This document shows positions 3,202-34,300 of a stretch of 64,000 nt of DNA, piece after piece (the stretch's first letter is position 1; the number at the start of each line of letters is the position of its first letter). A program made the position numbers and the translations under genes. Origin of the DNA: a virus; the IMG/VR virus record IMGVR_UViG_3300017917_000733, positions 1-64,000 of that record; one strand, 5' to 3'. The notes under the pieces were generated by a model. That model did no database searches and was not told the origin of the DNA. It saw only the letters and a list, made by a program, of their open reading frames with translations.

Positions 3202-4968
3202 TTATGCCAATCCACCAGGTGTAGCCGGTGCTCCAGCAGCGCCTGGCTCAGTTCCTACTGGTCCTGCTACTTCGGGTCCTTCTTGCCCTTCAGGCGGTGG
3301 CGTTTCCATAGTATCAGCCATTTCAGCATCAGCTTCCATGTCTCCTACACTAACGCCTACGCTACGTAAGTCACTACCTTGTGGTTCGATTTCATCATCT
3401 TTGTCGTTTTCTTCACGCCATAATGTTTCGTTCTTACTGATTTCTTCTTCAGTCAAGCCCAAGAAACGTTCTAGTGCAAAACGCTTACTGATATATGGAT
3501 ACGCTTCCATAGTACTGAAAACATTAACTCGTGCACCATCAAGCTCACTTTGACGATATGCAGCAAAGTTTTGTGGGGGATTGAACTCTAATGTGAACAA
3601 TCCGCTATCGATGTTAAAACCTCTCCAGCGCAAGAATAATTTGAATTCTTCGTCTAGTTTATGAGAGATATAATTCTGTAGTCGTTCGCAATATTGATTA
3701 AAACGATATTCCTGAATTAATGCTGTTCCAACTCGTCCATCATTAACAACTCTGTCGCTATCATCGGGACCTGTGGGTAAGTATGAACTTGGGATACGCA
3801 AACCACGTGCTAATCTGTTGTTGAAATAACGCAAATCGTCAATTTCACCTAAGTTTTGTCCACCTGGTAATGTTGTAACGTCAGATCCACGACCGTCAGC
3901 AGTGACTGGGAAGAAGTAATCTTCGTTCATCGACAATGGGTTATATGTTGCATCTAATACTGATTGTCCACCTTGACTACTTGGAATACGTCTTTGGTGA
4001 ATTTCGTTCTTAATACGCTCAACAAACGCCATAGCCATATGACTTGGCATATTACCAACGTCAATTTTGAATACTCTGCGCTCAGGTGCTCGTTGTACAC
4101 GATAGATTAAGATAGCATCTTCTAATAATTCTTTTTGTTTGAAAACTTTGAAGATGTTTTCTAGGATACTTTGTCCAAAAGGCCAGAATCTGTCCAAACC
4201 TTCTGTTAAACTTAAATGAACAACGTGTTTAGCATCGACTGCACTTTCACTTTGACCTAATGTAAAACGGCTACCTGTTGTATTATATGGCATAGCAGGA
4301 ACTGTGTATGGAGTGTTAGTTCCACCACCAGAACCACCTAGACCAGTTGCAGGGTTAGCTGCAAAGTCTGTGTTTGTTTTAGTTGCAACTGTTAAGTTTT
4401 GTAAGTTAATGTTAATGTCTTTGATAACATATTGTTCAGGCTTCTTACCTTCACTTTCGTTAACAATAACTTTAATAACTTTAACCATATCGACCCAATA
4501 TAATTTGAAGTTCTCTGGGTCACGAACAAAAACCTGATCTCCGTACTTTACAGTGTTACGGAATATCTTAAAGATACGTGTGTCAAATTCATTTAGCTTG
4601 CACCATTGCTGTAATTGTGTCTTTAACAATTCGACTTCGTGCTGAGTTGGATCTTGTTTAAAGTTTAAGTTGAATGGTGTTTTATTGTGTTCATTCTTTT
4701 GTGTACAGAATTCAGCTAGAATATCTAAACATGCGTTGATTTCAGCATCAACATCCATCATTTCATACTGGTTGTATCGTTCAATACGGTTTGGGTGACC
4801 AGTATAGACTTCAGGAAGTCTGGACATATAATTCTTATAGCCAAACTCAGTGTTGTTCCAGTTATCGGATTGTCCTGGGCCTGCATTCCATGCACCGCTG
4901 TTACTATTTGCACCAGAAATAGGGCTAGATATACCAGCCTTGTTTGTAAATCTTCTTTTGTAAGTCAT
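3202..4968 (-). CDS. gp20: Portal protein, T4 gp20-like
   Basis: Motifs LEDAILIYRVQRAPERRVFKIDVGNMP, EDYFFP, TTLPGGQNLGEIDD and LRIPSSYL. CTAAATA at 4983-4989 upstream. Confidence 0.95.
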   Translation of the reverse strand: MTYKRRFTNKAGISSPISGANSNSGAWNAGPGQSDNWNNTEFGYKNYMSRLPEVYTGHPNRIERYNQYEMMDVDAEINACLDILAEFCTQKNEHNKTPFNLNFKQDPTQHEVELLKTQLQQWCKLNEFDTRIFKIFRNTVKYGDQVFVRDPENFKLYWVDMVKVIKVIVNESEGKKPEQYVIKDININLQNLTVATKTNTDFAANPATGLGGSGGGTNTPYTVPAMPYNTTGSRFTLGQSESAVDAKHVVHLSLTEGLDRFWPFGQSILENIFKVFKQKELLEDAILIYRVQRAPERRVFKIDVGNMPSHMAMAFVERIKNEIHQRRIPSSQGGQSVLDATYNPLSMNEDYFFPVTADGRGSDVTTLPGGQNLGEIDDLRYFNNRLARGLRIPSSYLPTGPDDSDRVVNDGRVGTALIQEYRFNQYCERLQNYISHKLDEEFKLFLRWRGFNIDSGLFTLEFNPPQNFAAYRQSELDGARVNVFSTMEAYPYISKRFALERFLGLTEEEISKNETLWREENDKDDEIEPQGSDLRSVGVSVGDMEADAEMADTMETPPPEGQEGPEVAGPVGTEPGAAGAPATPGGLA

Positions 4969-7467: not shown

Positions 7468-8295
7468 ATGGTAAATCCAAATAACCCGTTAAAACAATTT
7501 TTCCGTAAACCAGCTGTGTATCTTAGATTACCTTCAGGAGGCAACTATGCACCTGGTGTAATTAACATGCCTGAAAACGGTGAGCTTCCTATATATCCAA
7601 TGACTGCGTTAGACGAAATCACAGTAAGAACACCTGATGCATTGTTCAACGGAGAAGCCGTATCTAGTGTTATTAGAAGTTGTGCCCCTAACGTTCTTGA
7701 TCCTTGGCGCCTTAATAATATAGATTTAGATGCTCTTTTGATATCTATACGTTCAGCTAGTGAAGGCAGTGAATTAGAAATAGACACTGTTTGTCCTAAC
7801 TGCAATGAAGAGGCCAAATATGGATTAAACTTAACTGCATGTTTAAGCCAATTGTCAATTAATGCATATCAAAATGAATTATCTTTAGGTGATTTGGCGA
7901 TTAAATTCAAGTCCTTGACTTATAAAGAAATCAACTACATAAACAATAAACAGTTTGAGATACAGAAATTATATACTCAAATTGAGAACATTCAAGATTT
8001 GGAAGAAAAATCAAAAAGAACCAAAGATATTTTTGTTCTAATCAATGAAGCTACTAACGTTGCGTTAGCAAAATCCATTGAATATATTAAAACCCCAAGT
8101 AGTGTAGTTACTGAACAAGAGTTCATACTTGAATTTCTATTAAATTGCGACAGTAATACATATGAAATTATAAAAGAGGAAAATGTATCTATTAAGAAAA
8201 ATTCAGAGATACAACCTTTAGATATCAAATGTATACATTGCCAACACGAATATAAACAACTGTTCACATTCAACATGTCTGATTTTTTCGGTTAA
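7468..8295 (+). CDS. Baseplate hub/tail assembly chaperone, T4 gp26-like
   Basis: 275 aa; LPSGG, YPMTALDE, D.LLI.IR.AS, and CPNC and CIHC zinc-type pairs. Confidence 0.7.
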   Translation: MVNPNNPLKQFFRKPAVYLRLPSGGNYAPGVINMPENGELPIYPMTALDEITVRTPDALFNGEAVSSVIRSCAPNVLDPWRLNNIDLDALLISIRSASEGSELEIDTVCPNCNEEAKYGLNLTACLSQLSINAYQNELSLGDLAIKFKSLTYKEINYINNKQFEIQKLYTQIENIQDLEEKSKRTKDIFVLINEATNVALAKSIEYIKTPSSVVTEQEFILEFLLNCDSNTYEIIKEENVSIKKNSEIQPLDIKCIHCQHEYKQLFTFNMSDFFG

Positions 8296-8331
8296 GGCTT
8301 CTATCCCTTGACCCCCAAGGGATCAAGAAGC
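8283..8331 (+). promoter_or_regulatory. Putative programmed -1 ribosomal frameshift signal
   Basis: Slippery heptamer T_TTT_TTC (8283-8289) in frame, 7-nt spacer, then a stem-loop at 8297-8331. The -1 frame is open into the ORF ending at 8519. Confidence 0.7.
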
Positions 8332-8342
8332 TAATCGATAAT

Positions 8343-8519
8343 ATGGAAAAAGAATGTTCTGATATAAAGCGCAATGCATTACAGCTTGCGTGGTACATGA
8401 GGGGAGCAGTCAGTTATACTGAAGTTTTGAATATGTCCGCAGAGGAACGAAACCATATTAATAAATTGATAGAAACTAACTTAGAAACTACTAAGAAATC
8501 AGGTCTACCATTCTTCTAA
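8343..8519 (+). CDS. Small ORF not in the supplied track; likely frameshift extension of the 7468 gene
   Basis: MEKECSDIKRNALQLAWYMRGAVSYTEVLNMSAEERNHINKLIETNLETTKKSGLPFF*; resembles gp51-like/chaperone-extension peptides; no obvious RBS of its own. Confidence 0.7.
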   Translation: MEKECSDIKRNALQLAWYMRGAVSYTEVLNMSAEERNHINKLIETNLETTKKSGLPFF

Positions 8520-8573
8520 TTAAACCCGTAACTGTTCATTTATCACTTCGGGGGAACATCTTTTTTCTTTTAA

Positions 8574-8616
8574 AGATGAACTTCGTTCATCTAGAACTTC
8601 GCTATCGCTCAGTTCT
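8574..8616 (-). other. Two adjacent hairpins (GAA triloop; GAGCGATAGCGA core)
   Basis: Minus strand AGAACT-GAGCGATAGCGA-AGTTCT immediately followed by AGATGAAC-GAA-GTTCATCT. Confidence 0.6.
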
Positions 8617-8679
8617 TATTTTTACGGTAATCTATTGTCTAGTACTTTCTTTAATTATTACATTAAGGAATACATATTG

Positions 8680-9030
8680 CCGCTTTGAAGCCATGGTAGT
8701 GCTATTCAGCACCACCAATGGTTAAGGGTACACTTGCCATGCCCGTCATCCATAGTCACTTATGCCCGTACTGTCGCCGTCTTTGCTGACACAATACGCT
8801 ACCGGTTGCTCTGTAAAGTTTATGGCCTGTAGTGTAGCCATGTATTCTCTAAGTAATACACGCTACCGCAACGCACATTCTATAACATCAAAGTGAAATA
8901 GTTATAGACTTGTTGAGTGTTCGCTTTGTCGATTGCACTCTCGGTATTCCAAGACTCTCACGAATCTCGCATACTCCAGATCCATCGGCGTTATTCACGC
9001 TTCTTCAAGGAGGTCCTGCAGCCAGGACGA
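8680..9030 (-). ncRNA. Candidate large structured non-coding RNA, family not recognised
   Basis: ORF-free, GC-richer than its flanks, at least 7 stems. Mismatches resolve to G-U wobbles on the minus strand; GUGA tetraloop; possible long-range closing helix TTGAAG/CTTCAA. Confidence 0.6.
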
Positions 9031-9048
9031 CAAATTTTTACTTTAAAA

Positions 9049-9600
9049 TTAGGTATTAATAGTTAGGGAATTTTCTGGTGTTGACATGGTGTCTGTTGTT
9101 GAATATGTTTTTAATAATTCAGTGTTGAGTTGAAAGAAACTGTCAAATTCGAAAATTATCCAGTCTCCGTATTTTTTTGAAGTGTAATATAAGAAATTAT
9201 CAGATACCCACGTTAATTTGCTTTGTACACAAACATAACGACCTTTGCGATTAAATTTCATAAACAATATGTTTACGTCATTAGGATCAGCAACATCTAA
9301 CAATTGATCTAGCCAACCGTCTAAAACTTTACATTCCCCTGTAAGTAATAGATGAAACGGGAAGTCTGCATAGAACTTGCATTCGATATTCATGTTTTTG
9401 AATGAATGTCCGGGAACAACATCGCCCTTGAATGAACGAATCTGCCCCTCATGCAATATTTCTTTGCGTACTTGATTCTTCCCGCCCACATAAGCTCCAG
9501 ATCCTGGTGCACGAATGAAAGACTCACCGTATTTTTCTGATAAAAATTTAGCTATTTCTCGTTCGTAACCCGAACCTTTTTGTTTCTGTGGACTTGGCAT
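9049..9600 (-). CDS. Holliday junction resolvase-like PD-(D/E)XK nuclease (Hjc type)
   Basis: KQKGSGYEREIAKFL, RAPGSGA, GDVV and IECK motifs. Start moved to 9600 because ATAAGTA lies at 9606-9612. Confidence 0.75.
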   Translation of the reverse strand: MPSPQKQKGSGYEREIAKFLSEKYGESFIRAPGSGAYVGGKNQVRKEILHEGQIRSFKGDVVPGHSFKNMNIECKFYADFPFHLLLTGECKVLDGWLDQLLDVADPNDVNILFMKFNRKGRYVCVQSKLTWVSDNFLYYTSKKYGDWIIFEFDSFFQLNTELLKTYSTTDTMSTPENSLTINT

Positions 9601-9635
9601 AATCATACTTATTACCTGTAGAGGAAAATCTAAAA

Positions 9636-11708
9636 TTATTCTACGTCTACCGCAGTATTATAACTTGTAAAGCCGTTTTCCTTAATGACTTTTAACACAC
9701 TAGGAACACGACCTGCAAGTTCTTCACGGTGTGATACAAGCCAAATAGATTTATGTCTACGCCGGCTCATGTCTTTGAGAATTGCTAGACTATTCTCAAC
9801 ACCCATTGTGTCAAGACCACTGTCAATCAATTCGTCAATGAATAGTGTATTGACTGGAGCATACAAGTTCTCCCAAACATCACGGAAAGCAAAACTCAAA
9901 CCAAGAATCAGTCTGTTTCGTTCACCACGACTTAAATTGTCAAAGTCAAGCTCACGACCAAGTTCAGTGATTTCAACTTGAAGGTCATTCTTAAAGATAA
10001 CATTGTGGGGAAGTCCGATTTTATCTAAGTAATGAGTTAGTCGCTGGTTGAGATAACTCAAGTTCTGGTCAATAATCTTTTTACGAACAAAACTGTCTTT
10101 GCTGGTCAATAAGTCTAGCAAGAACTTTTGATGTTCCATAGTCTTAGTGATTTCGTTAATCTTATCAAACTTTACTTCCTGCAATGCTTGACTTTCCATT
10201 TCAATAATTTGTTCTTGATATGGATCAGTTTCTCCCGCTTTGCTTTCAATCTGTAATAATAACGTCGATACCTTTGTACGATGCTCAACTGCTTGGGCTT
10301 CGGTATCATAATAAGTAGATGGACGCTTACCGAGAGTAACGCTAGGTGTGTCAAGAAGTTGTTCACTAAAGGGGTTATTCTCGCTGGATTTCTCGTCAAT
10401 CTGCTTTCTGATGTTATCAATTTCCGTTGATTGACGCACTGCCTCGGCTTCTGTCTTATAATGTGTAACAGGTTTGTCTCCTACAACAATAGGGTTAGCA
10501 ACTAATTCATCAAGTTGGAACTTTAAATCATCTAAATGACTCTTGCTAGCATTCCACAACTCAACTTTGCCATTCAAAACATTAGTGTGCTGTTCGTCAT
10601 GGAAATCTTGTCCACATGCATAACACTTGTGTTCTTTTAATGTTTCAATTTCTTGTGTGAGTTTGTCATAGTTCTTGCCTTCTTTAGCAATCTCTTTACG
10701 CAAACTTTCAACTTTACCATCATATGCTGTCTTTAGTTGAACTTGACTGTTGTAAACAGCTAGATCGGTATGAGCCTGCAATTCAGCAATAAAATCAATA
10801 TGGCTTAATTCATCCATTCTTAATTTAAGTTTTGCAATATCATTATCTTGCTTTTGCATCCAAGCAGTTTGGCGTGCAATTAATGCATCATATGTTTCTT
10901 GTTGTTGTTTTTGTTGATTCCAAACAACCAAGTCTTTGTGTGCTTGTAACTCAGCATCAATATCAATTTTGCTCAATTCATCATATTCAGATACAAGTGT
11001 AGCCAAATCTTCATCGTGCTTGCGCTGCCAAAGTGTTTGTCTACGCTTAACGCTATCAATTTGTTCTTTGACTCTTTTGTTGGCTTCTTCAACAGCCTTG
11101 ATACGAAATTCTTCCTGTTGTATATCGTCTTTACTTTGACGAATCAAATCTTTGACAACTTCTGCTTTCTCAGACAACAATGTGATACCCAATAGCTGTT
11201 CAATGATTTCACGCTGTTCATTATTTTTGAGTGCAAGGAACGGTTCGGAGTAAGTGTTCAACACAACAATGTGCTTGAACATTTCAGGAGTCATATTCAA
11301 CACACGCTCAATTGCAGCCTGTGTTTCTTTATTCTCACCCTGTTGATCCTCAGTAGCCTTTTGCTGAACATCGTTTACATAGAACTTGAGAACATTGGGC
11401 TTACGACCACGCTCAATCTTATAATCAGTACCGTTGACATTGAACTCAAGTGTAACCATCATACCTTTAGCATTGGTACGATTGACTAGGTTATCTTTAC
11501 GAATGTTATTGATTGGCTGACCAAACAGTGCATAAGAAAGACCTTGAATCAATGTGGTCTTGCCCGTACCATTACGAGCACCGTCGCCACCTAAGTCTAA
11601 GTTTTCACCTAGAATCAGTGTAATATCTTTTTTGTCAAAGTCAACTGCTTGTGTTACATTACCGATTGATAGAAAATTCCGTAGTGTAATATTCTTAATG
11701 TTAATCAT
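9636..11708 (-). CDS. gp46: Recombination endonuclease ATPase subunit (gp46/SbcC/Rad50-like)
   Basis: Walker A NGTGKTT, zinc hook CYAC, signature LSRGE, Walker B FIDELID, H-loop VSH. Confidence 0.95.
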   Translation of the reverse strand: MINIKNITLRNFLSIGNVTQAVDFDKKDITLILGENLDLGGDGARNGTGKTTLIQGLSYALFGQPINNIRKDNLVNRTNAKGMMVTLEFNVNGTDYKIERGRKPNVLKFYVNDVQQKATEDQQGENKETQAAIERVLNMTPEMFKHIVVLNTYSEPFLALKNNEQREIIEQLLGITLLSEKAEVVKDLIRQSKDDIQQEEFRIKAVEEANKRVKEQIDSVKRRQTLWQRKHDEDLATLVSEYDELSKIDIDAELQAHKDLVVWNQQKQQQETYDALIARQTAWMQKQDNDIAKLKLRMDELSHIDFIAELQAHTDLAVYNSQVQLKTAYDGKVESLRKEIAKEGKNYDKLTQEIETLKEHKCYACGQDFHDEQHTNVLNGKVELWNASKSHLDDLKFQLDELVANPIVVGDKPVTHYKTEAEAVRQSTEIDNIRKQIDEKSSENNPFSEQLLDTPSVTLGKRPSTYYDTEAQAVEHRTKVSTLLLQIESKAGETDPYQEQIIEMESQALQEVKFDKINEITKTMEHQKFLLDLLTSKDSFVRKKIIDQNLSYLNQRLTHYLDKIGLPHNVIFKNDLQVEITELGRELDFDNLSRGERNRLILGLSFAFRDVWENLYAPVNTLFIDELIDSGLDTMGVENSLAILKDMSRRRHKSIWLVSHREELAGRVPSVLKVIKENGFTSYNTAVDVE

Positions 11709-12721
11709 AGGTTGTTATAGATATCCAAAAGTAGTTTTTTATCGAAATTTTTACTTTCGATAGCATTGATTTGGTCAATGACGATTTGGTCAACAGACTC
11801 AAACTTTAATCCGTCACTGTTCTGACCTTGCTCAATACCCTCACCTTTGATAGGAATCAATGTCATTTCTCTTAGTTTATGTTCTGGTATAAATGTTTCA
11901 CGTAGGAAGTTTGCTTCCTCATACGAAATATCAATATCAAGATGTACTCTAACATGACTGTCAATTAAAAGATAGCCCTCTGGGTTCTCTAAGATTTCAC
12001 TGAGTTTATGCACACGATAGATTGGTTGACGAGGCCAGGACTTGAAAGTAGGCTCTTGACCCCATTCTAGTATCATCATACCTCGTGCATCATCACCTGC
12101 GTCTGCGTAGTTATGTGGGAAAGCATTACCTGTATACCAGACATTGCCCTTTGCTTGACGCTTGTGAAAATGACCACTGAATACTTTTTCAAAGCCAGTC
12201 ATATGTGCAACATTTAATTCACCGTGATCTGGCATTTCAACCATAGCATTCATAAAGAAGTTAGGCAGTTCGAAATGACCGAACAAATACTTTCCGCCCA
12301 TCTTTTGAAGTTTCTTGTAATCTTCTCCAACTAACCAAGGGCTAATAACTACATCACCTTCTTTGAAAAAATCATTAACAACTTTAACATTTGGTAAATG
12401 CTTTGCCCATTCAACACTGTGAATATCACGGCGGTCACGATAGTATAAATCGTGATTGCCAGGAATAAAGTATACAGTATCGAAATTAGCATTTAGTTTC
12501 TCCAGTGCTTGTAGACCAAATTGCAATGTGTGAATATTGATACTTGCACGATGATGATTCCAATCACCTAAAAAGAAACAGGTTTCACAACCTTCTTTCT
12601 TTGCTGTTTCAATAAACCAATCTACGAAATTGGCACAATCTTGGTTATGTTGTAGGCTGTTTGACTTCAATCCAAAATGAATATCTGTGAATACAGCAGC
12701 TTTTTTAAAAAGGTTACTCAT
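11705..12721 (-). CDS. gp47: Recombination endonuclease nuclease subunit (gp47/SbcD/Mre11-like)
   Basis: Metallophosphoesterase motifs DIHFG, GDW, GNHD, GHFE and SGHFH. Confidence 0.95.
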   Translation of the reverse strand: MSNLFKKAAVFTDIHFGLKSNSLQHNQDCANFVDWFIETAKKEGCETCFFLGDWNHHRASINIHTLQFGLQALEKLNANFDTVYFIPGNHDLYYRDRRDIHSVEWAKHLPNVKVVNDFFKEGDVVISPWLVGEDYKKLQKMGGKYLFGHFELPNFFMNAMVEMPDHGELNVAHMTGFEKVFSGHFHKRQAKGNVWYTGNAFPHNYADAGDDARGMMILEWGQEPTFKSWPRQPIYRVHKLSEILENPEGYLLIDSHVRVHLDIDISYEEANFLRETFIPEHKLREMTLIPIKGEGIEQGQNSDGLKFESVDQIVIDQINAIESKNFDKKLLLDIYNNL

Positions 12722-12771: not shown

Positions 12772-13671
12772 TTATTCTTCGTATGACCCAGAACCTATAC
12801 CCTGTCGTGACCAACTTGGGTTAAGTCCATTGATTTCTAAAATGTCATCACGTATGTTTTGGCTACGCTTTTCCGTATTCAAAACACGACAGAAACTGTT
12901 TGTTATCGCAGCAGTGTAATACGCAAATGGGTTAGCTGATTTAGCTTCGTTGAATCGCAAACCAACATATGTTAATTGAAGAACTGCACTAGCTTTCATT
13001 TCATCAACATATGTATAACCACGCCAGTTGAACTTCATAGCATACTTGTCGCAAAGCATGAGATACATTTTGGCTAGCTTATTTGTAATCTTTCCATGCT
13101 CCTTGTTAAAAGTACCTGTTTCCAAATCTCCATCCCAATGACTTTTACCTACACAATATAGTGTACCGTTTTCGTCAATTTTATAATGTTGGAAAGGAGG
13201 GAAGTTAACCTTGACATGAACCATATCATCAACCTCATCTTTAGTTGTGGTATCTTCTAGGTCAGCAAAAATCTCGTCTACATCTGGTTCATCAAACTCA
13301 AAGATATCTTTTGCTGTTTTCTTTTTGACAGTTTTGCGGGGTTGTTTTGGGGCTACGGGAATATGATCCCAAGTCATTACACGAAATACTAAGTCTGTAG
13401 TTGGAATCTTTTTTGGATCTACTTTCTCACCCGTTTCTATGCTTAATCTTGCTGCTCTGACTTCTTTTGCTTCTTTGATTACAGAACTTTTTGCCGCTTG
13501 TTTTAAGCTACTTTCTATAGGATCATGCGGCATGTCTATAATCAAATCATACCTGTGATATTCAGGTTTAGTGAAATAACAATATGAATTTTTGCTTTCG
13601 TGTATTTCTTTAAGAATGTCTTTATTGTTTAGATAATTTACTGGTTTTTTGGGGGTAGGTAATAAACTCAT
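12772..13671 (-). CDS. gp55: Late transcription sigma factor, T4 gp55-like
   Basis: NYLNNKDIL, NWRGYTYVDEM, and RFNEAKSANPFAYYTAAITNSF motifs; adjacent to gp47/gp46; GGAG RBS. Confidence 0.88.
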   Translation of the reverse strand: MSLLPTPKKPVNYLNNKDILKEIHESKNSYCYFTKPEYHRYDLIIDMPHDPIESSLKQAAKSSVIKEAKEVRAARLSIETGEKVDPKKIPTTDLVFRVMTWDHIPVAPKQPRKTVKKKTAKDIFEFDEPDVDEIFADLEDTTTKDEVDDMVHVKVNFPPFQHYKIDENGTLYCVGKSHWDGDLETGTFNKEHGKITNKLAKMYLMLCDKYAMKFNWRGYTYVDEMKASAVLQLTYVGLRFNEAKSANPFAYYTAAITNSFCRVLNTEKRSQNIRDDILEINGLNPSWSRQGIGSGSYEE

Positions 13672-25340: not shown

Positions 25341-28300
25341 ATGGTAACACGCATTCGAACACTAAATTTTCTACCAGACATTTTTAAAACTACAACTAAC
25401 TCGCAGTTTTTAAATGCAACGTTAGATCAGATAGTACAGCAACCTAATACTAGAAAAATTGAAGGTTATATAGGTAGCAAATTTGGTTATGGTGTAAACG
25501 CAACAAACAAATATGTAGTTGAACCAAATAAAACAAGAACAGATTACCAATTAGATCCAGGCGTTGTCTTTTTAAAGAAAGATACTGGATTCGCACAAGA
25601 CTTTATCAGTTATCCTGGAATCATTGATGCTCTTAATCTTGCAGGTGGAGTTACCAATGATAACAGTAGAATGTTTGAAAGCCAATTCTATTCATGGGAT
25701 AGCTTTACAAACTTAGATAAAATAATTAACTTCAATCAATATTACTGGGTACCAGAAGGACCCGAAGCTGTCACAGTCTCTACAGGAATTGTTTATAAAG
25801 ACGAAAATTATGTCGTAACTGATACCCCTAACGGTTATTTAATTTCTGCTGAAGGATCATCCCTCTCTACTACAAACCCATACCTAACATTATTACGTGG
25901 TGGTACATACACGTTCACAGTGGACCAAAATACACAGTTTTGGATACAAGGTGTTCCTGGTGTAACTGGCTTTGACCCAGCACAAGTTAATGTACAAACT
26001 CGTGACGTTTTAGGTGTTGAAAATAACGGTGCTACTCAAGGCGTAATTACTTTTACTGTCCCCGAAAAAGATGCACAAAATGAATATGATGTACCTGGCA
26101 ATAACTCAGTTGATATTGTAACAACATTGCCGTTTGCTCAAGTCAATGGCGCTCTTATATCTGCGATTAATGGTCTTGACGGCATCACTTCATTAGATGG
26201 ATTAACGTTAATGTTCTATGACACAGGGGTTGAAAATGAACAAGGATTCATTCAACCTGTTTCTGGTCCTGGATATTATACCGATGTTGCTGCTACTTTT
26301 TATCAGATAACAGTTGACAACGGTCAAATAATACTAAGCGATTATGCTCCGATTCCTACGGGAGAAAAAATTACAGCTAAGTACGGTACTCAGTGGATCG
26401 GTAGAAGTTTCTTTAGAAATACGTTTGGGCAGATTACTTTAATTCCTTACTTGAGTGCAGTTTTAGATACACTCTACTATCAAGATGGTTCTTCTGAAAA
26501 CAAAGTAGGTCAATTACGTTTAATTGAAGCAAACGCAACTGATAGAATCAATATAATCGAAAATATTCTAGGAAGAAAAAATTATACTTCACCAAATGGA
26601 GTTGTTTTTACAAATGGTTTAAAAATTATTTTTGACGGTAATATATATCCAACATCTTATGAAAATACTGAATACTATGTTGAAGGTGTAGGTACAGCTA
26701 TAACGTTAATTCCAGTAGATGAAACTTTAGTACCGGAACCATTTACATTTGGATCATATATTCCTTATGACACGTTAAATTATGATATTGGAAACTATGA
26801 TGTTGGTTTATATGTACCAGTAACACCCGATTACATAACAATTGCTAGAAATGCAATTAATAAGAATGCGTGGAGTCGCAGTAATCGTTGGTTCCACATT
26901 GATGTTTTGAATGCTACAGCAGCATATAACAATAATCCTGATTTATTAAGTTTGTATACAACTAATGACAATAAAGCAAAAAGACCTATTATCGAGTTTT
27001 ATCCAAACCTAAGATTGTTTAACTCCGGTATAGTGGGTAAAGCACCAGTCAACTTTATTGACCAAAGAACAACTGATGCATTTACATATGTTGCAGGCCA
27101 AGAGAATTACTACCCTGATGTTCAAGTGTACACTGCCTACACTGCAACTATCAATGCGGCATCTGGATCAATAATTACTACAGCAACAGCTACTACCGCG
27201 AACCCAAATAACGCTATCGTTTGTACTAGTACTGCTGGATTTAGAAAAAATGATAAGGTTACATTTACTGGTACTACTTTTGGTGGAATAACAGCTAGCA
27301 CAACATATTATATTGAAAGTGTTGTAGATTCTACATCTTTCACTATAACTACCGAACAGAACGGTGACGTATTAGTACTCACTGCTGGTTCTGGTACAAT
27401 GACAGTTACCGTAAATCCTTTAACCACAACAATTGATGTTGCTACAAGCGATATTACCGGAACACTTCAAGTTGGACAATACGTAGTTGATAGTACAAAC
27501 TTGCTACCAATAAATTCTCGCATTCAAAGTATTTCATCAACAAGCGGAACAACTACTATTGTTGTATATTGGGATGATGTTCAATCTGTATCAGGAACAA
27601 CTGTTGCATCCATTATAGCCAATGATATAAACAATGATAACTATCAATTATTCGACGGTGCTAGGATCGTTTTTACTGAAGACACTAATCCTGAAGTAAG
27701 AAATAAAGTATATGTAGCACATTTTGCAACTCCAGTAACTGGTGGCGACACAGTTATCACATTGACTCTTGCTGATGATGCTACTGTATTACCCTACGAA
27801 CAGGTGGTGGCATACAGCGGTTACAATAATTTAGGAAAAACATTTTACTTTGATGGTACTCAGTGGATACAAGCACAACAAAAAAATACAGTTAACCAAC
27901 CACCGTTGTTCGATGTGTTTGACAAAGATGGTATAAGTTTTGGTAATGAAACTGTATATCAAGGTACTAGCTTTACTGGTAATAAATTATTTGCTTACGG
28001 TATAGGTTCTGGTATAGAAGATATATATCTAGGATTTCCGTTAAGATACAGTTCAGTCGATAATGTAGGTGATATTAGCTTTGATGTATCGTTAAACCTA
28101 GACACATTTAATTATGTAAACACTTTAACTAACTCTCCTGTAACTAAAAAGGTAAACACAGGATATGTTTACAACTATACTGACATAGCAACGTATGACA
28201 GAATGCTTGGATGGCAAACAGCAATTGGACCTAGTGTTCAATATCAGCTATTTGAATTCAATTACTATGCTAGCAATCCAGTAACAAGTTATACATGTGA

Positions 28301-31300
28301 TATATCCATGTTGAACTCTACTGATAGTCCATGGCCAACTATTCAAGTATTTGTCAACAACGTTTTGCAGCCTAGAACAAGTTACACAACAACAGTAACA
28401 CCTAATTCTACTATTGTTAACTTTACAGTTCCTGAACCGTTGATTGATACTGTAGTTGAAGTTGCATTACTAAGTAATCAAGTTAGCAAAATAGGTTTTT
28501 ATGGAATACCAATTAATTTAAACAATAATCCATTAAACCAAGATTTGTCAGTTGTCAATATAGGTGATATTCGCGGCCAGTATCAAAGCATATATTACAA
28601 CAATCCTAATACTGTAGGTAATGTGTTTGGTCCAAATAACTATCGTGATTTGGGTGATGTAGTTCCTTATGGAACTAGAATAATTCAGAACAGCGCAAGT
28701 CTAGTTTTACCCGGTACTTTCCTAAGACAACAGAATCATAATTTATTTGATGCGTTGATGTTCAACAGCAAAGAATATATTAATTTCAAAACACTATTGG
28801 TAAGCACAGTAAACAACACTGATTACAACGTTTATCAAACGCCTGCGTTCATGTTAGATGATGCGCTAGACCAAATTACAGCAAACAAAACTGACGGTGA
28901 TCCCTTCTTCTGGTCAGACATGCTACCTGGTAAGTCAGCATACATCACAAATACATATAGCTTTGCCAACGCATTAGATATTAGCATCTATCCGTTAAGT
29001 AAAATTTATAATTTTAACACCGCAAACTACAATGGTGTATTGGTCTATCTAACACGTAACAACATAATAACACAATTGATTAATAATGTTGATTACACTG
29101 TAAGTGTTGACGCTCCTTCACTCACGGTGACATTAGATTTGTTACCTAATGACCAAATTACTATTAAAGAATACAATCAAACATATGGTTCATATGTACC
29201 TAACACCCCAACCAAGTTAGGACTATATCCATCTACTATTCCTAGCGTTGTTTTAGATTCTAACTATAACCAGCCTACATATTTTATAGTAGGACATGAT
29301 GGATCATATAACAAATTATATGGTGATTATGTTAATGGTCAACTAGTTGACTTTAGAGATAAGGTTTTACTAGAGTTTGAAACTAGAATTTACAACAACT
29401 TAAAATTAGGTGATACTTTACCTATAAGTGAGTATGACATACTACCTGGTTTCTTCAGAGATACAGACTATTCATACGATGAAATTCTTGAAATTTATTC
29501 ATCCAATTTCTTGAATTGGGTTGGTCAAAATAGAATTGATTACAAGACACAATATTATAATGCAAATAACGAATATACTTACAACTATAACCGTAGTGGT
29601 AACAAGATAAACAATGAGCCTATACCACAGGGTTATTGGAGAGGTATATATCAATATTTCTACGATACAGCAAATCCAGACACCATGCCATGGCAAATGA
29701 TTGGCTTTACAGACAAGCCAACCTGGTGGGAAACACGCTACGGTCCTGCACCATATACAAGTGACAACTTAGTATTGTGGGGAGATTTAGCACAAGGTAT
29801 TAACTGGAACAATGGAAACCCAGTCACATTATCTCAGTTTGTAAGACCAGAATTGTTACAAGTTTTACCTGTAGATAGCAACGGTGACTTAGTTTCTCCG
29901 TTCGTCGCTATAGTTAGAAACTACACAAGCCAAACATTCATGCGTGATTGGAAAGTGGGCGATGTAGGACCTGCTGAATTCAGCTATCGTCGTAGTAGCA
30001 CATGGCCATTTGACTTAATGAAAATAATGGCTTTAACTAAGCCTGCACAATTCTTCAATTTGGGCGTTGACTTAGACAACTATAGATACAACAGCGAATT
30101 TAACCAATACTTAGTAAATGATAGAAGTCATTTGATTATCAGCGATGTTGAAATCTATGGTAATGGTACAGCAAAGACAAGTTATATTAACTGGATTGTT
30201 GACTATGAAAAACAAGTTGGTATTGATGCAACGACAAACATTACTGATTTGCTAGACAACTTAGATGTTCGTTTAGTATATCGCCTAGCTGGATTCTCAG
30301 ACAAGAATCTATTAAAGTTCTATGTTGAAAAGGGTACACCAAACAGTAATAATGCAAGCCTGTTGATCCCTGACGAAAGTTATAGCGTATTATTATATGA
30401 TAATCCACCGTTTGACCGTATCATTTATTCCGGTGTAATCATTCAAATTAGCAATGACGGTTACTTTAAAGTATATGGCAACAGCCAAACTAATGCGTAC
30501 TTCAAAGTACTAAAGCCAAAAATTAATGGTAACTATGAAACAGTAACAGTAGACAACTACAGTGTTAAATTGCCTAACGATTACTCCGATATAGAAGAAG
30601 TAATTGCATACGGAACTACATTATATAGTATCCAAGAAGTTGCAACTTTCTTAAAGAGCTATGGAAAATATTTACAAAGTCAAGGTGTATTGTTTGAGCA
30701 AGTAGAAGTTGGTATGCCGATAACTTGGGAGCAAATGGTTGCTGAATTCTTGTACTGGGCACAAAGCGGCTGGGATATCGGTAGCATAATCAATATTAAC
30801 CCTGCAGCCAAATTGATTGCAATTGACAAAGTTGATAGTGTTGTGCAACCATTGACATTACAACGTCAAAACTTTATCTTAAATCAAAACTTGTATCCAA
30901 TACAATCAGTAGATTTAAGTGTTGTTCGTGATGGCACAGCATTTACTGCACAACCATTAAATCAAGGTGATACTGTTGCATATGGTCAATTTAATATGTA
31001 CAGTTTCGAACACGGTATTGTATTTGATAACGTTACATTATTTGATGATATCATCTACAATTTAGTTACCGGATTACGTCAGAACCGCATTTATGTTCGT
31101 GGAACAAAAACTGCTGAGTGGAACGGCACAATTGATGCACAAGGTTTCATCTTAAATCAAGACAACATTATTGAATGGAGCCCTGTAACTAAGTATACGA
31201 CTGGTTCTATCGTAACATACAAAAACAAATATTGGATTGCTACAAAGATAATTCAACCCGCAATGGTTTTCCAAGAAAGAGATTGGAAAGAAACAGACTA

Positions 31301-34300
31301 TAATGAAATTCAAAAAGGTCTATTACCAAACTCTAGTACTAGAAGCTATGAGTCTACTCTTTACTATGATGTAGATAAAGCTAACTTAGAACAAGATGCT
31401 GATTTATTAAGTTTCAGCTTGATCGGATATCGCCCACGTGATTATCTAGCATTGGCTGATTTAACAGACATAACACAAATTAACGTCTACAAAAACTTAA
31501 TAAAGAACAAGGGCACACGTAACGCTACTGAAGCATTCAAGGGTGCTACACTACCGCAAGGCGGCATTGACTATGATATCTATGAAAACTGGGCTATCAA
31601 GACCAGTGAGTTCGGTGGAGTACTTAACAATAACTTTGTTGAATTTAGATTAAATCAAACAGAGTTGACAGGTAATCCTAGTATAGTCGGTTTGACAACT
31701 GGATACTACACTAACGGGGTACAACAAGAAGTACCTTTATATAACCTATACAATTATGGAAGACCAGTAACTGATCCTAATGTATTGCCAGTAGTGCCAG
31801 CAGAAGAACCTTCAAAGTTATTCCCCGACGCTGGATATGTTAACTTCAATGATGTTAAGATTTCGTCTTACTTCTACTCAGGATTAATTAATAACACAGT
31901 ACCGTTAAGCAATTTATACGTAGGTGACTATGTTTGGTTAGCTAACTATCAAGGTACATGGAATGTAATGACACCTGTAAGTCAGGGTGAAGTAGTCTTG
32001 GCTAGAAGTATAGGAACAGATGTAGTTTCACTAACATTTGATAAACCACATAGCCTAACACAATACACACCTTTTGCTTTGATTAATTTCAATAGCAATT
32101 TAGATGGTTACTATATTGCTAATAGCATCGTTGATCCTTATACTATAACTATTACTATACCTAATTTAGGAACACCTTTCTTAACAGCAATTACAGGTAA
32201 TGGTATAGTTGTTACATTCCAATCAAATCGTGTAAGAAAAACCTCAGACATTACAAATCTACCATTACTAAACAATGAGTTTGTAAAAGACAAAGTTTGG
32301 GTTGATACTGCATCAAACGGCTCTTGGGCTGTATACCGCAAATCACTAAACTACCAGTATAGCAAAGAATTTACAAACGATGGTTCTTTAAACTACGGTA
32401 GCGCAGTAGCATACGCTGATTCATTTGGATACTTGATTGGAGATAACGAGTTAGGTGAAGTCTACAGATATGTTTACAACCCATTAAGAAATCGTTATGA
32501 TTTAGTGCAAACACTAACAGGTGATAGTTCATTTGGTTCGACAATTTCATACTCAGGTAATATTGTTGCTATTTCTCAGCCTACAGGTGCTACTGCATCT
32601 GATAGAAAAGTTAGAATTTATGAATATGTTTCTAACAATTTAGTTGATGAATTACAACTACTACAAACCATAGATGCACCTGATAGCTTGATTACTTCTT
32701 GGGGTAGTGCATTAGCTGTATCCGGTGACCTAAATTGGTTATATGTTTCTGACACCGCAAACAATACTGTTTATGTCTATCGTAAATCATTAGTTGACGG
32801 ACTATATGCATACTCTACTGTATTGCCAAGTGTATCAGGTTTAGTATCTGGTGACAATTTTGGTAGCTCACTGTCAACAAATTATTACGGCGATACTGTA
32901 ACGGTTGGAGCACCAAACATTGATGTTGGCGCATTAGCTGACGTTGGATATGCTTATGCGTTTGATAGACTATATCAAAACTTTGAAGCAGCAACCACAA
33001 GTATTCCGTTTGTTCCATTAACGTTTAACCTAGCAGTTACTGTAAGTACAACGTCTAAAACTGCAACAAATACTTCTGAAGGTGGTTTTGCGGATTACAT
33101 TAAGGTTACTAGTGGATTGACAGGTGTGTCAATAGATGATCCTGTAGTGTTCTCTGGCACAATATTATCTGCTGGCGCATTACAAGAAAATAGAATCTAT
33201 TATGTTGTTGATATATCAGGCTCAAGATTCAAAGTAAGCACAACTCGCGGCGGCGCTCCTGTAACATTGTCCACTGATACTGGAACAATGACATGCACAT
33301 TCCAAACTGAACCAGTGTTTGTCAGCGTTAACGGAACTACGCTTTCTGATGACAATTATTTTGTTGTAGGATCTGTATTAAGTGTTATAAGCACAATTAA
33401 CGCAGGTGATATTATCAATGTAAGCACATCTACATTCGTGTTATCACAAACATTTGCATCAGAAGATACTACAAGGGTAGGTCCTGAATTTGGTACTAGC
33501 GTTGCAAATAATAGCTATGCTACTGAAATATTAGTTGGCGCACCTTTTGAAATACGTGAAACAACCGGTGAAGGTGCAATTTATAGGTACACTAATAGCG
33601 GTGGAAAGTATGGCTACATCATTGGTACAGGTACCGTAGCCATTTCAGCTCCAACTACTATTTTGATTAATGGTTATGCAGTGTCATTAGTTGCGGGCGA
33701 TGCTACTAGTGTCGCAAACGCTATATTGGCAGCTAACATAACAAACGTAACCGCTAGTGCTGTTGACGGCAAATTAACAATTGCATTACTTAATACATCA
33801 TTGGCAACAGTAAATGATAAGTTAAATCTTGCAGTATTGAACGATTCAGATTGGGCTGAATTAGGAATTGACCTATACACAAGAACAGAAGTCATAACAT
33901 GCCCTCATACACAAGGCGCAACTCAATTCGGTACAGTTATTAAATTCAACGAGTATCAATCATTTGTAGCGAGTGCTGTATCTGGAAACAGATATGTTGG
34001 AACAACATTTGATAGCACTGATGACGAAAACTTTGACAACGACACTATATTTGACAACAACGCTACACAATTTGTAGATGTGTTCAAGAATGCAGGTGCT
34101 GTTTACATGTTTGATTACCTAGAGAATTATAATGAAACTTTATTAAATGTTGGTAAATTTGTTTATGCACAAAGCACAAATTCATTAAACACTGAGTATG
34201 GTAATCAACCTTTATATGGTAAGGCACTTGATTTTAATAACTATACAGTTGTTGTGGGTTCTCCTAACTTTGAATTTGACGGAAACTATGGTCAGGTTAT

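Follow-up and report, generated by a model that had tools for sequence, protein, structure and literature searches.

A predicted non-coding RNA gene with two pseudoknots and twin boxes in uncultured aquatic jumbo phages of a T4-related lineage

By its sequence, the region 8675–9032 on the minus strand of the window (the whole 64,000-nt stretch analysed, positions 1 to 64,000 of the IMG/VR virus record IMGVR_UViG_3300017917_000733) is the core of a free-standing non-coding RNA gene of about 358 nt. The core is conserved in 133 distinct sequences with 60–91% identity and has no match in Rfam. Its predicted fold consists of 12 helices together with the long-range helices A and B and a pair of pseudoknots, and the RNA carries two short boxes whose letters are held identical to each other. 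RNA positions are numbered from 9032 (position 1), so that the window coordinate is 9033 minus the position; all parts of the RNA lie on the minus strand.

The first-pass annotation had singled out this region as the largest gap without open reading frames in the window. This is correct: the gap extends from the end of the nuclease ORF at 9049 to 8519, the end of a small plus-strand ORF (8343–8519) which is the closest plausible gene across the gap. The annotation had also placed here a structured RNA, co-oriented with the nuclease gene and starting about 20 nt past its stop, and strong covariation bears this out. Its choice of the minus strand agrees with the folding energies of both strands. 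The minus strand folds with -110.5 kcal/mol, compared with -96.1 ± 4.8 for shuffled sequences (z -2.98; none of 100 shuffles as good), whereas for the plus strand z is -0.98 and 15 of 100 shuffles are as good. This asymmetry favours the minus strand. Protein coding, including a gene that uses another code, was rejected because all six frames hold 12–18 stops and the substitutions show no three-base periodicity. The entropy by codon phase across the RNA is 0.781/0.773/0.775, which gives no coding signal, and a length divisible by three is seen in just 169 of 1579 indel runs. Read with table 11, the late genes surrounding the RNA are open. In nucleotide sequence the RNA element and the nuclease gene are equally conserved (medians of 72.3% and 72.7%, respectively, in 155 loci). 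Part of the stretch is contained in 20 sequencing runs, all of which are DNA or probably DNA; four of these gave contig pieces only.

Covariation among relatives, a check proposed with the first annotation, was analysed and found to be strong. In 49 diverse relatives 92.2% of the paired cells are indeed paired, compared with 77.0% in shuffles, and none of 500 shuffles reached this value; once the partners are slid it drops to 31–43%. Double changes were found in 72 of the 100 pairs in these relatives, and RNAalifold identified a compensatory change in 56 of 90 pairs. The long-range helices A and B are predicted to be stacked on each other. In addition, dozens of unpaired letters across the RNA are invariant.

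The 5' part starts with hairpin Ha (5–10/15–20; 9013–9028), in which five of the six pairs show two-sided changes. The adjoining region (8974–9012) forms helix Hb (CUCC at 21–24 with GGAG at 56–59) around hairpin Hc (29–49). Hb is paired in 100% of cases and three of its four pairs are invariant; in Hc double changes occur in four of the five outer pairs and also in the sixth pair. The invariant CCUCCUU at positions 20–26 resembles the 3' end of 16S rRNA, as an anti-Shine–Dalgarno mimic would, but in the predicted fold it pairs with GGAG of the RNA itself. Hairpin Hd (64–71/76–83; 8950–8969) has double changes in all eight pairs. The 5' strand of helix A (UACCG, 87–91; 8942–8946) has its partner at 8800–8804; this helix is 99.2% paired, with double changes in three of five pairs. 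Hairpin He (93–97/114–118 plus 101–103/110–112; 8915–8940) is 100% paired, with double changes in six of eight pairs and invariant internal-loop letters, and hairpin Hf (120–122/156–158 plus 125–132/147–154; 8875–8913) is 99.6% paired, with double changes in 10 of 11 pairs. The loop of Hf (137–142; 8891–8896) constitutes the 5' strand of pseudoknot PK1, whose 3' strand is situated at 272–277 (8756–8761). PK1 is supported by mutual information, is 100% paired in 49 sequences and shows double changes in five of its six pairs.

The 5' strand of helix B (GUUGC and one further letter, 161–166; 8867–8872) pairs with 8805–8810, the helix being 95.9% paired with double changes in three of six pairs. 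Downstream of this strand lies hairpin Hg (167–199; 8834–8866), which is variable in length and sequence and aligns poorly; it is 66–68% paired, and 10 of its 11 pairs show double changes. The stretch 8800–8826 comprises the 5' strand of pseudoknot PK2 (207–209; 8824–8826), a conserved single strand and the 3' strands of B and A (223–233). Hairpin Hh (236–265) is 96.9% paired, with double changes in nine of ten pairs, and is directly followed by the 3' strand of PK2 (267–269), the two together occupying 8764–8797; PK2 itself is 96.6% paired and all three of its pairs show double changes. Positions 216, 87 and 233 form a candidate base triple. Position 87 pairs with 233, and the letter at 216 equals that at 87 in 115 of 133 sequences (TT 84, CC 19, AA 12; the other combinations are CT 14, TC 2, GT 1 and AT 1). 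The 3' part contains the small hairpin Hi (284–286/292–294, 92.5% paired), which together with box 1 occupies 8734–8749, and hairpin Hj (8691–8721), which has 13 pairs and a near-invariant sequence. Hj is 95.6% paired; six of the 13 pairs are invariant and four vary on one side only. This hairpin was used as the search motif.

All eight hairpins drawn in the first-pass annotation (Ha, Hc, Hd, He, Hf, Hg, Hh and Hj) lie within the covariation-supported fold. One of its two long-range pairs, GTTGC/GCAAC, is helix B. The other, TTGAAG/CTTCAA, was discarded as a closing helix; it lacks covariation support, its letters are near-constant and position 347 toggles between A and T facing an invariant U. 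The loop of the GAGATTC hairpin, described as GNRA, varies, and relatives carry CGAT, CAAT or TAAT. Helix A (UACCG/CGGUA), Hb, Hi, both pseudoknots, the candidate base triple and the twin boxes had been overlooked.

The comparison with Rfam that had been suggested was carried out, and no family of Rfam 15 matches the core. With the gathering thresholds none of the 4227 models matched the whole 64-kb window, and at E up to 10 none matched 8660–9045. Four weak matches were obtained for 8300–9150, all of them at 8513–8625 and thus outside the core; the best was RAGATH-30 with 20.3 bits against a threshold of 59.5. The loci of nine relatives (64,860 bases) yielded one weak match, outside the RNA. 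The earlier statement that no tRNA, tmRNA, RNase P or group I/II intron is present was confirmed with ARAGORN, which found no tRNA or tmRNA gene in the window, and with Rfam. There was no Rfam match to bacterial RNase P, whose RNA is recognised by its P4 pseudoknot and by the conserved regions CR-I to CR-V; presumably the helix order of our RNA gives no P1–P4 layout either. The Polynucleobacter-1 motif (RF01718) had no match in the window (E up to 10) or in the loci of the nine relatives (E up to 5). In the passage of PMC2864571 dealing with this motif, it is listed for Burkholderiales and for fresh water and estuary.

HEARO/omega RNAs and TnpB reRNAs are similar in that a large structured RNA adjoins a small nuclease gene. 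In contrast, the nuclease here is of the PD-(D/E)XK resolvase type and is also encoded by cultured phages that lack the RNA, the locus has no transposon around it, no Rfam model matches, and the poorly conserved stretch past the core is an A/T-rich spacer with no obvious guide. In the literature we found no paper describing the RNA family. It is not described in the text of PMC10690425, which reports more than ten thousand candidate phage RNAs, as far as the accessible part of that paper goes; its supplementary tables might include it. The RNA family is new in that it is absent from Rfam 15.

The 133 distinct full-length copies were gathered from contigs of uncultured aquatic jumbo phages. Each of five complete genomes (352–525 kb) holds exactly one copy, and the 121-kb record containing the window has one strong match to the RNA model. 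As judged from these contigs and genomes, the RNA occurs once per genome and belongs to aquatic, uncultured jumbo phages of a T4-related lineage. Its placement is constant, with the nuclease gene on one side and convergent baseplate-hub genes on the other. The upstream neighbour (9049–9606, minus strand) encodes a 185-aa PD-(D/E)XK resolvase-like nuclease (Pfam PDDEXK_15, E 9.3e-25; PHROG 244). Its ORF is complete (Pfam positions 2–162 of 164), and it precedes the RNA in 94 of 94 motif-anchored loci. The nuclease family is widespread, and one listed record is annotated "D14 protein/putative resolvase". The genes around the RNA serve recombination and replication (resolvase, SbcC-like and SbcD-like).

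The initial suggestion that the RNA could be a partner of this nuclease is weakened by the wide distribution of the resolvase family and by the phages SCTP-2, PA5oct and Phosso, which carry the nuclease without the RNA. These phages have the closest cultured nuclease homologues (Salicola SCTP-2, 50%; PA5oct, 41%; Phosso, 39%), and in all three a different gene directly follows the nuclease. With a model of the central domain (R1) no copy of the RNA was found in them, PA5oct and Phosso giving no match at E up to 1. R1 had a single weak partial match in SCTP-2 (E 0.82, 12.8 bits, model positions 82–137 of 149) and, with filters off, a weak match inside a hub gene of PA5oct (14.2 bits, E 0.027); both were taken as noise. 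A blastn search with 8400–9060 against 50,697 phage records gave no match. In the bacterial and archaeal species-representative genomes the hairpin motif matched two GC-rich stretches (Chitinophaga and Massilia), neither of which matches the core profile.

Just upstream of hairpin Ha the near-invariant A-rich box TAAAAAT is situated (9034–9040, minus strand). In 95 of 124 sequences this box lies 25–30 nt upstream of CUCC, and it may be a promoter element or part of a 5' leader. It differs from the CTAAATA motif preceding the late genes, which is absent upstream of the RNA. No sigma-70-like site was found on the minus strand upstream of the RNA or at the TAAAAAT box, and there is no terminator between the nuclease stop and the start of the RNA. 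Past the core follows a poorly conserved A/T-rich spacer (8616–8674, minus strand); the median A+T content of the first 50 nt is 0.76 compared with 0.56 in the core. Conservation extends further, as far as two hairpins (8594–8615 and 8574–8592, minus strand) which show compensatory changes. The hairpin at 8574–8592 has a GAA triloop closed by C-G. Among 124 sequences the strongest hairpin past the spacer has the loop C-GAA-G in 84 and C-GNA-G in 98, and C-GAA-G is kept even where the stem changes. GAA triloops closed by C-G form very stable DNA mini-hairpins. On the plus strand the first hairpin of the pair is followed by TATTTTTAC, a T-run. The two hairpins could be the 3' end of the RNA, a terminator for the convergent plus-strand genes, or structures of a displaced DNA strand.

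The most unusual feature of the RNA is a pair of twin boxes. Box 1 (K-C-A-U-G-G-C-A-A, 291–299) is located at the foot of hairpin Hi, and box 2 (K-C-G-G-C-A-A, 350–356; 8677–8683) lies 59 nt further on in the 3' tail. Positions 291 and 350 agree in 118 of the 133 sequences (GG 82, TT 31, CC 3, AA 2), so that all four letters occur. On the RNA tree we counted 19 changes at position 291 and 21 at position 350, and only 23 when the two were counted jointly. The two positions have therefore flipped together many times. The identity reaches further positions as well, rare variants such as GGTAA, AGTAA, GATAA, AGCAA and GGCATG each being shared by the two boxes of the sequence in which they occur.

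We searched for a complementary partner of the boxes. None was found within the RNA or in its flanks (60 nt upstream, 220 nt downstream). Across 131 loci there were 52 matches, unclustered, where about 64 are expected by chance, and the 121-kb record containing the window showed no enrichment either, with 5 and 8 matches compared with 7.4 expected. As the boxes are identical and not complementary, each is able to base-pair with the complement of its twin. A strand of this kind exists only as the gene's own template DNA or as antisense RNA. The pattern of identity says that a putative nucleic-acid partner reads both boxes; it would be accounted for just as well by a third partner, encoded by the host or at a more distant site of the phage genome. 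Identical short repeats permit template jumping in RNAs of the retron/DRT type. Template jumping by a reverse transcriptase was rejected, since PF00078 is found in none of the five complete RNA-carrying genomes (control genomes 3 of 14) and the 59-nt unit between the boxes carries stops.

As each box could pair with the complement of the other, our best guess, held with low confidence, is that the RNA would take hold of the template DNA of its own gene and so form an R-loop primer. The upstream segment that this would call for is present, box 1 being complementary to the template at box 2. A replication primer was one of four functions named in the first-pass annotation, and it appears to fit the twin-box pattern best. 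Slightly more doubtful is the fuller version of this proposal, a structured pre-primer of a giant phage in which box 1 would seize the template at box 2, lock an R-loop by the A/T-rich stretch and start replication. In our main proposal the folded body of the RNA would present box 1 at the foot of Hi. When the RNA polymerase passes box 2, the upstream RNA would grip the template strand, and this grip would stabilise an RNA–DNA hybrid (R-loop) at the margin of the following A/T-rich stretch. The displaced strand could fold into the GAA-triloop hairpins, and the hybrid would open the DNA or prime DNA synthesis, for which the phage T4 origins oriF/oriG and ColE1 RNA II are possible precedents.

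According to the parts of PMC4412123 that treat these systems, a stretch of rG in the ColE1 transcript must contact a stretch of dC of the template strand for a persistent hybrid to form, and T4 oriF/oriG consist of a middle-mode promoter together with an unwinding element downstream of it, where a persistent hybrid primes the leading strand; no structured RNA is mentioned in this description of the T4 origins. Like ColE1 RNA II, the RNA described here is a folded RNA of several hundred nt, and a contact between an upstream stretch and the template would explain its identical boxes. There is, however, no sequence or model similarity, ColE1 is a plasmid and not a phage, and its contact is a homopolymer of rG-dC whereas here it would be a mixed 7-mer. 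Nor is our RNA known to have a counterpart of the antisense RNA I or of the RNase H site; the likeness would be one of working and not of homology. With T4 oriF/oriG our case has in common that the phage is of the T4 type and that the transcript would run into an A/T-rich stretch, which here is preceded by a conserved 358-nt fold.

Several points count against a grip on the template. The T4 origins, as described in those parts of the source, call for no 360-nt doubly pseudoknotted RNA. The pairing between box and template would comprise just 7 base pairs, with box 1 needing a 2-nt bulge, and a replication fork starting at the RNA would meet the hub genes head-on. In the one complete relative analysed in this way (G002, 364 kb), which carries the RNA gene at 293.7 kb, there is no turning point of the GC skew at the RNA: the cumulative skew has its maximum at 192.9 kb and its lowest value after the peak near 330 kb. 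This lack of an origin signal counts against an origin, although the skew in the window tracks the direction of transcription, which makes it a weak origin test. The many unpaired letters that never vary hint at catalysis or at binding of a protein or ligand, and the downstream hairpins may be mere terminators for the convergent genes.

We considered five alternatives to the template grip. First, the RNA could be the scaffold of a ribonucleoprotein that binds phage or host proteins, with the boxes as sites for the halves of a dimer, and could act in trans, for instance as a regulator or decoy, with no contact to DNA. Many unpaired letters are invariant, the 13 pairs of Hj are near-invariant on either strand (6 of 13 never vary), a dimer would be well served by two identical sites spaced by 59 nt, and the adjoining gene encodes a resolvase-type nuclease. 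Resolvase-type nucleases act as dimers. Nevertheless, we regard this alternative as rather unlikely. Among close relatives the variable letter has switched between G and U some 20 times, always in both boxes; a protein reading it would need to adapt at every switch, and a protein blind to it would not impose identity. Moreover, the nuclease family is present in cultured phages without the RNA.

Second, the RNA could be a ribozyme, self-processing or acting on other RNA, in which one guide or active site reads the two boxes in turn. Its size, the two pseudoknots, the candidate base triple and the invariant junction letters recall large catalytic RNAs. Group I introns have a core of P3–P9 with a J8/7 strand and a guanosine-binding P7. 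They are similar in size, and the order of A 5', hairpins, PK2 5', A 3', Hh and PK2 3', in which helix A spans hairpins and PK2 brackets Hh, is in our estimation like the group I P3–P8–P7 knot. However, Hh abuts PK2 with nothing unpaired between Hh and PK2 3', the place of the essential J8/7 strand in group I introns, and helix B is an extra helix between the PK2 strand and A 3'. A group I intron was rejected, as there is no Rfam match (RF00028) and flanking exons are absent: on one side lies an intact nuclease ORF, on the other a convergent gene. No ribozyme or intron model of Rfam matches at E up to 10, and a guide complementary to the boxes was not found. On balance a ribozyme seems improbable.

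Third, the RNA could assemble with itself in the manner of GOLLD and ROOL by pairing of loops and strands, PK1 or PK2 possibly being intermolecular. Covariation is blind to the difference between pairing within and between molecules. Large ornate phage-carried RNAs form homo-oligomers, as is stated in the relevant part of PMC12286853. GOLLD and ROOL share with our RNA that they are large, intricate and pseudoknotted phage RNAs without an assigned biochemical job which were found by comparative genomics in environmental DNA. We give little credence to such an assembly: the RNA has no sequence similarity to GOLLD or ROOL and matches neither Rfam model, and the identity of the boxes would be left unexplained. 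The present RNA is also smaller, about 360 nt, and has a fixed site beside replication and recombination genes, whereas GOLLD and ROOL are about 600–800 nt long and typically lie near tRNA genes. We know of no twin boxes described for them.

Fourth, the decisive parts could act as DNA, namely as an origin or as a site of packaging or recombination; the RNA-like covariation seen in the 5' two-thirds would then be that of a separate RNA. Direct repeats (the boxes), an inverted repeat (Hj), an A/T-rich stretch and hairpins are all present, and direct repeats with an inverted repeat and an A/T-rich stretch are a common origin layout. Hj is almost unvarying, there is one copy per genome, and the GAA triloops are closed by C-G. 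Yet Hj and its neighbours accept G-U and not A-C (AU 44/GU 5; CG 37/UG 8), which points to RNA or to one single strand; PK1 links the 3' region (272–277) to the 5' body, and the GC skew gives no origin signal. We therefore hold this alternative, too, to be improbable. Least probable is the fifth alternative, a 3' untranslated element of the sigma factor/SbcD/SbcC/nuclease operon that serves only mRNA protection or transcription end: the RNA does start 21 nt past the nuclease stop with no terminator between, but a stabiliser has no need of a length near 360 nt, of two pseudoknots or of dozens of unpaired letters that never vary, and in nucleotide conservation the element equals the nuclease gene.

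Large intricate non-coding RNAs are rare, and most of those that are understood do fundamental jobs (ribosome, RNase P, introns, guide RNAs). The RNA described here is strictly single-copy at a fixed locus in genomes of 350–525 kb and is thus well suited to study; 133 distinct sequences suffice to define the predicted fold, its two pseudoknots and a likely base triple without experiment. We have met no earlier description of boxes held identical, and not complementary, through some twenty independent changes. These twin boxes are a direct and cheap experimental handle. If their partner is not the gene's own template, another partner exists to be found. If it is the template strand, we would learn by what means a giant phage designates and activates an origin of replication, and a template grip would amount to a ColE1-like mechanism, with a sequence-specific grip encoded in the RNA, in a T4-related virus.

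The 121-kb viral record to which the window contributes the first 64 kb was rated 24% complete by CheckV and is thus a piece of a jumbo phage. The genes around the RNA locus are T4-type and include a portal gene (3202–4968, minus strand), a baseplate hub gene (7468–8295, plus strand), a gene for a PD-(D/E)XK nuclease of 185 aa (Pfam PDDEXK_15; 9049–9606, minus strand), SbcC-like and SbcD-like genes (9636–11708 and 11705–12721, respectively) and a late sigma factor gene (12772–13671). The nuclease and hub genes are convergent, and the sole plausible gene in between is a small plus-strand ORF of 58 aa following the hub gene (8343–8519). This ORF is kept with 50–77% identity in all 163 loci with enough flanking sequence and is therefore a real gene or part of a gene. 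The adjoining region 8520–9048 is the largest gene-free gap of the window, as the first-pass annotation had noted for the ORF-free stretch 8680–9030. Elsewhere, a single ORF of 6017 codons lies among tail and baseplate genes (25341–43394). Outside the window ARAGORN located a permuted tmRNA with the tag ANDEQFALAA (G000:C1:66567–66955, G000 being the 121-kb record) and a tRNA with the anticodon CUA, of the amber suppressor type (G000:C1:69374–69446).

The minus strand of 8680–9030 folds with –110.5 kcal/mol compared with –96.1 ± 4.8 kcal/mol in dinucleotide-shuffled controls (z –2.98; 0 of 100 equally good); for the plus strand z is –0.98. All six frames across the region are rich in stops. 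No sign of coding was found in the column entropy, which is equal across the phases (0.781/0.773/0.775), or in the indel runs, merely 169 of 1579 of which are multiples of three. No Rfam 15 family matches anywhere in the window at the family thresholds, and none matches the RNA core (8675–9032, minus strand, 358 nt; RNA positions count from 9032), where a search of 8660–9045 gave nothing at E up to 10. The wider stretch 8300–9150 gave four weak matches, all within 8513–8625. The Polynucleobacter-1 motif gave no match at the locus (E up to 10) or in the loci of nine relatives (E up to 5). Neither a tRNA nor a tmRNA is found in the window by ARAGORN, in agreement with the earlier reading.

When viral contigs were searched with the nuclease protein, 284 related places were confirmed, the best 80 of which were retained. 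By blastn the downstream element is present in 79 of these best 80 loci; in the 80th, L067, the sequence stops 66 nt into the element. A degenerate motif based on the best-conserved hairpin led to at least 120 further stretches. The best 80 of the 284 nuclease loci and these stretches together yielded 133 distinct full-length sequences with 60–91% identity to the window's copy. A profile search recovered the element in 201 of 201 loci, as expected given how the loci were gathered. Among the matches listed, 94 of 94 loci that the RNA motif alone had revealed and that carry enough flank have a co-oriented nuclease gene upstream, and in 85 of 85 the small ORF and the hub gene follow downstream in convergent orientation; with all loci pooled these counts are 171 of 171 and 163 of 163. 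In nucleotide conservation the element equals the nuclease gene (median identity 72.3% versus 72.7% over 155 loci, the RNA being the better conserved in 59 of them).

A covariance model of the central domain of the RNA detected one strong copy in the window's record and exactly one copy per genome in five complete relatives of 352–525 kb. It detected no copy in Salicola SCTP-2, Pseudomonas PA5oct and Sinorhizobium Phosso, the cultured phages with the most similar nucleases. A blastn search of 50,697 phage records gave no match, and in species-representative bacterial and archaeal genomes the hairpin motif gave two chance matches and no others. DNA of the RNA stretch is present in pond, estuary and unlabelled metagenome runs, with smaller shares in freshwater and other runs. 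As far as these searches reach, the RNA family belongs to uncultured aquatic jumbo phages. In the complete 364-kb relative G002 the cumulative GC and AT skews both peak at about 192.9 kb, at most 30 bases apart and far from the RNA gene, marking a sharp strand-bias switch.

RNAalifold, applied to 66 sequences, gave 90 predicted pairs, of which 56 show one or more compensatory double changes. Mutual information between every two columns of the 133-sequence alignment again yielded the hairpins and further revealed the long-range helices A (87–91 with 229–233) and B (161–166 with 223–228), whose 3′ strands are contiguous, and two pseudoknots, PK1 between the loop of hairpin Hf (137–142) and 272–277 and PK2 between 207–209 and 267–269. 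For a test of the full structure, 49 sequences with pairwise identities below 88% were aligned independently with MAFFT. Standard pairs are formed in 92.2% of the cells compared with 77.0% after shuffling (0 of 500 reach it) and 31–43% in a control with slid partners; the covariation score is 0.441 versus 0.170 for shuffled data, and in 72 of 100 pairs both partners have changed. Pairing is complete in PK1 (100% of the cells; 5 of 6 pairs doubly changed) and reaches 96.6% in PK2 (3 of 3) and 99.2% in helix A. The weakest parts are the variable hairpin Hg, which aligns poorly and is 66–68% paired, and helix Hb (CUCC/GGAG), which is always paired and hardly varies. An invariant CCUCCUU at 9007–9013 (RNA positions 20–26) pairs with an equally invariant GGAG at 8974–8977; it resembles the anti-Shine-Dalgarno end of 16S rRNA. 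Position 216 has the same letter as position 87, the partner of 233 (TT 84, CC 19, AA 12, CT 14, TC 2, GT 1 and AT 1 in 133 sequences), and we read 216 with 87 and 233 as a candidate base triple. All eight hairpins listed in the first-pass annotation are part of the covariation-tested structure, and its GTTGC/GCAAC pairing is helix B. Its TTGAAG/CTTCAA pairing receives no support from the variation, and its GNRA loop lacks conservation.

Eighth in strength among the mutual-information signals is one that is not a base pair: positions 291 and 350 carry the same letter (GG 82, TT 31, CC 3, AA 2, GA 8, CA 5, gap 2; n = 133). Each belongs to a short word that occurs twice, as K-C-A-U-G-G-C-A-A at the base of hairpin Hi (box 1, 291–299) and as K-C-G-G-C-A-A in the 3′ tail (box 2, 350–356). 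Mapped onto a tree of the remaining RNA, the two columns undergo 19 and 21 changes, but only 23 when counted jointly, hence they flip together repeatedly. Rare variants of the word (GGTAA, AGTAA, GATAA, AGCAA, GGCATG, an extra C) are likewise shared by both boxes within one sequence. Hairpin Hj lies between the boxes, and its loop shows no tight linkage to them, so that the boxes' identity is not simply that of a block inherited together. No complementary partner for the boxes was found within the RNA, in the 60 nt upstream or in the 220 nt downstream. Elsewhere in 131 loci there were 52 unclustered exact matches compared with about 64 expected, and the 121-kb record showed no enrichment.

The 50 nt following box 2 are poorly conserved, with a median A+T content of 0.76 versus 0.56 in the core. 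Further 3′ lie two adjacent conserved hairpins with compensatory changes (8594–8615 and 8574–8592), both of which contain CGAAG. The strongest downstream hairpin retains its loop despite differences in the stem, as C-GAA-G in 84 and as C-GNA-G in 98 of 124 sequences. A C-G-closed GAA triloop kept despite stem change is unusual for a plain terminator. One downstream hairpin is followed by a T-run on the plus strand and may therefore be no more than the terminator of the convergent genes. In 95 of 124 sequences a TAAAAAT box precedes the core at constant spacing. It is distinct from CTAAATA, which precedes late and structural genes by 15–45 nt (at 2852, 4968, 7400, 7468, 46432 and 61409), looks like this phage's late-promoter word and is not present upstream of the RNA.

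The most specific pointer to function is that the boxes are kept identical, and a nucleic-acid partner explains this pattern. Apart from the complementary strand of the other box, that is the template DNA strand or an antisense RNA, no partner would change automatically whenever a box does. Our best guess from these sequence patterns, and a tentative one, is that the RNA might hold an R-loop via its own template strand. In this scheme, box 1 of the folded RNA would be offered to the template strand where box 2 lies; this contact would hold the R-loop at the edge of the A/T-rich stretch, and the displaced strand could fold into GAA-triloop hairpins. There are precedents in ColE1, where a dC stretch of the template has to be contacted by an rG stretch lying upstream in RNA II, and in T4 oriF and oriG, which consist of a promoter and an unwinding element (PMC4412123). 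Against the R-loop reading, the fold greatly exceeds in complexity what the T4 origins as described there would call for, the GC skew of one complete relative has no turning point at the RNA locus, and the downstream hairpins may be plain terminators.

Somewhat less probable is that the RNA serves as a protein scaffold: a protein reading the variable letter would have had to adapt about twenty times, and one indifferent to it would not keep the boxes alike. We consider it unlikely, to the same degree in each case, that the RNA is a ribozyme, that it forms an RNA-only assembly or that the locus acts as an element at the DNA level, and very improbable that it is a 3′-UTR stabiliser. Template jumping by a reverse transcriptase would also explain identical boxes but lacks its enzyme, a reverse transcriptase gene being present in 0 of 5 complete genomes.

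We conclude that the locus is a genuine gene and that its RNA, large and with two pseudoknots, represents a new family; the first-pass annotation, which had proposed an unrecognised multi-stem RNA of about 350 nt downstream of the nuclease gene, stands in its observation and main interpretation. Group I introns possess a P3-P8-P7 knot, which the helix order loosely resembles, but the RNA here is without exons. Nearest in kind are GOLLD and ROOL, large ornate phage RNAs whose job is not known, and by any test applied here they are unrelated to it. No description of the RNA came to light in literature searches or in a term search of a large survey of structured phage RNAs (PMC10690425), whose supplementary tables might list it. 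The twin boxes give a sharp experimental handle on the function of this RNA.
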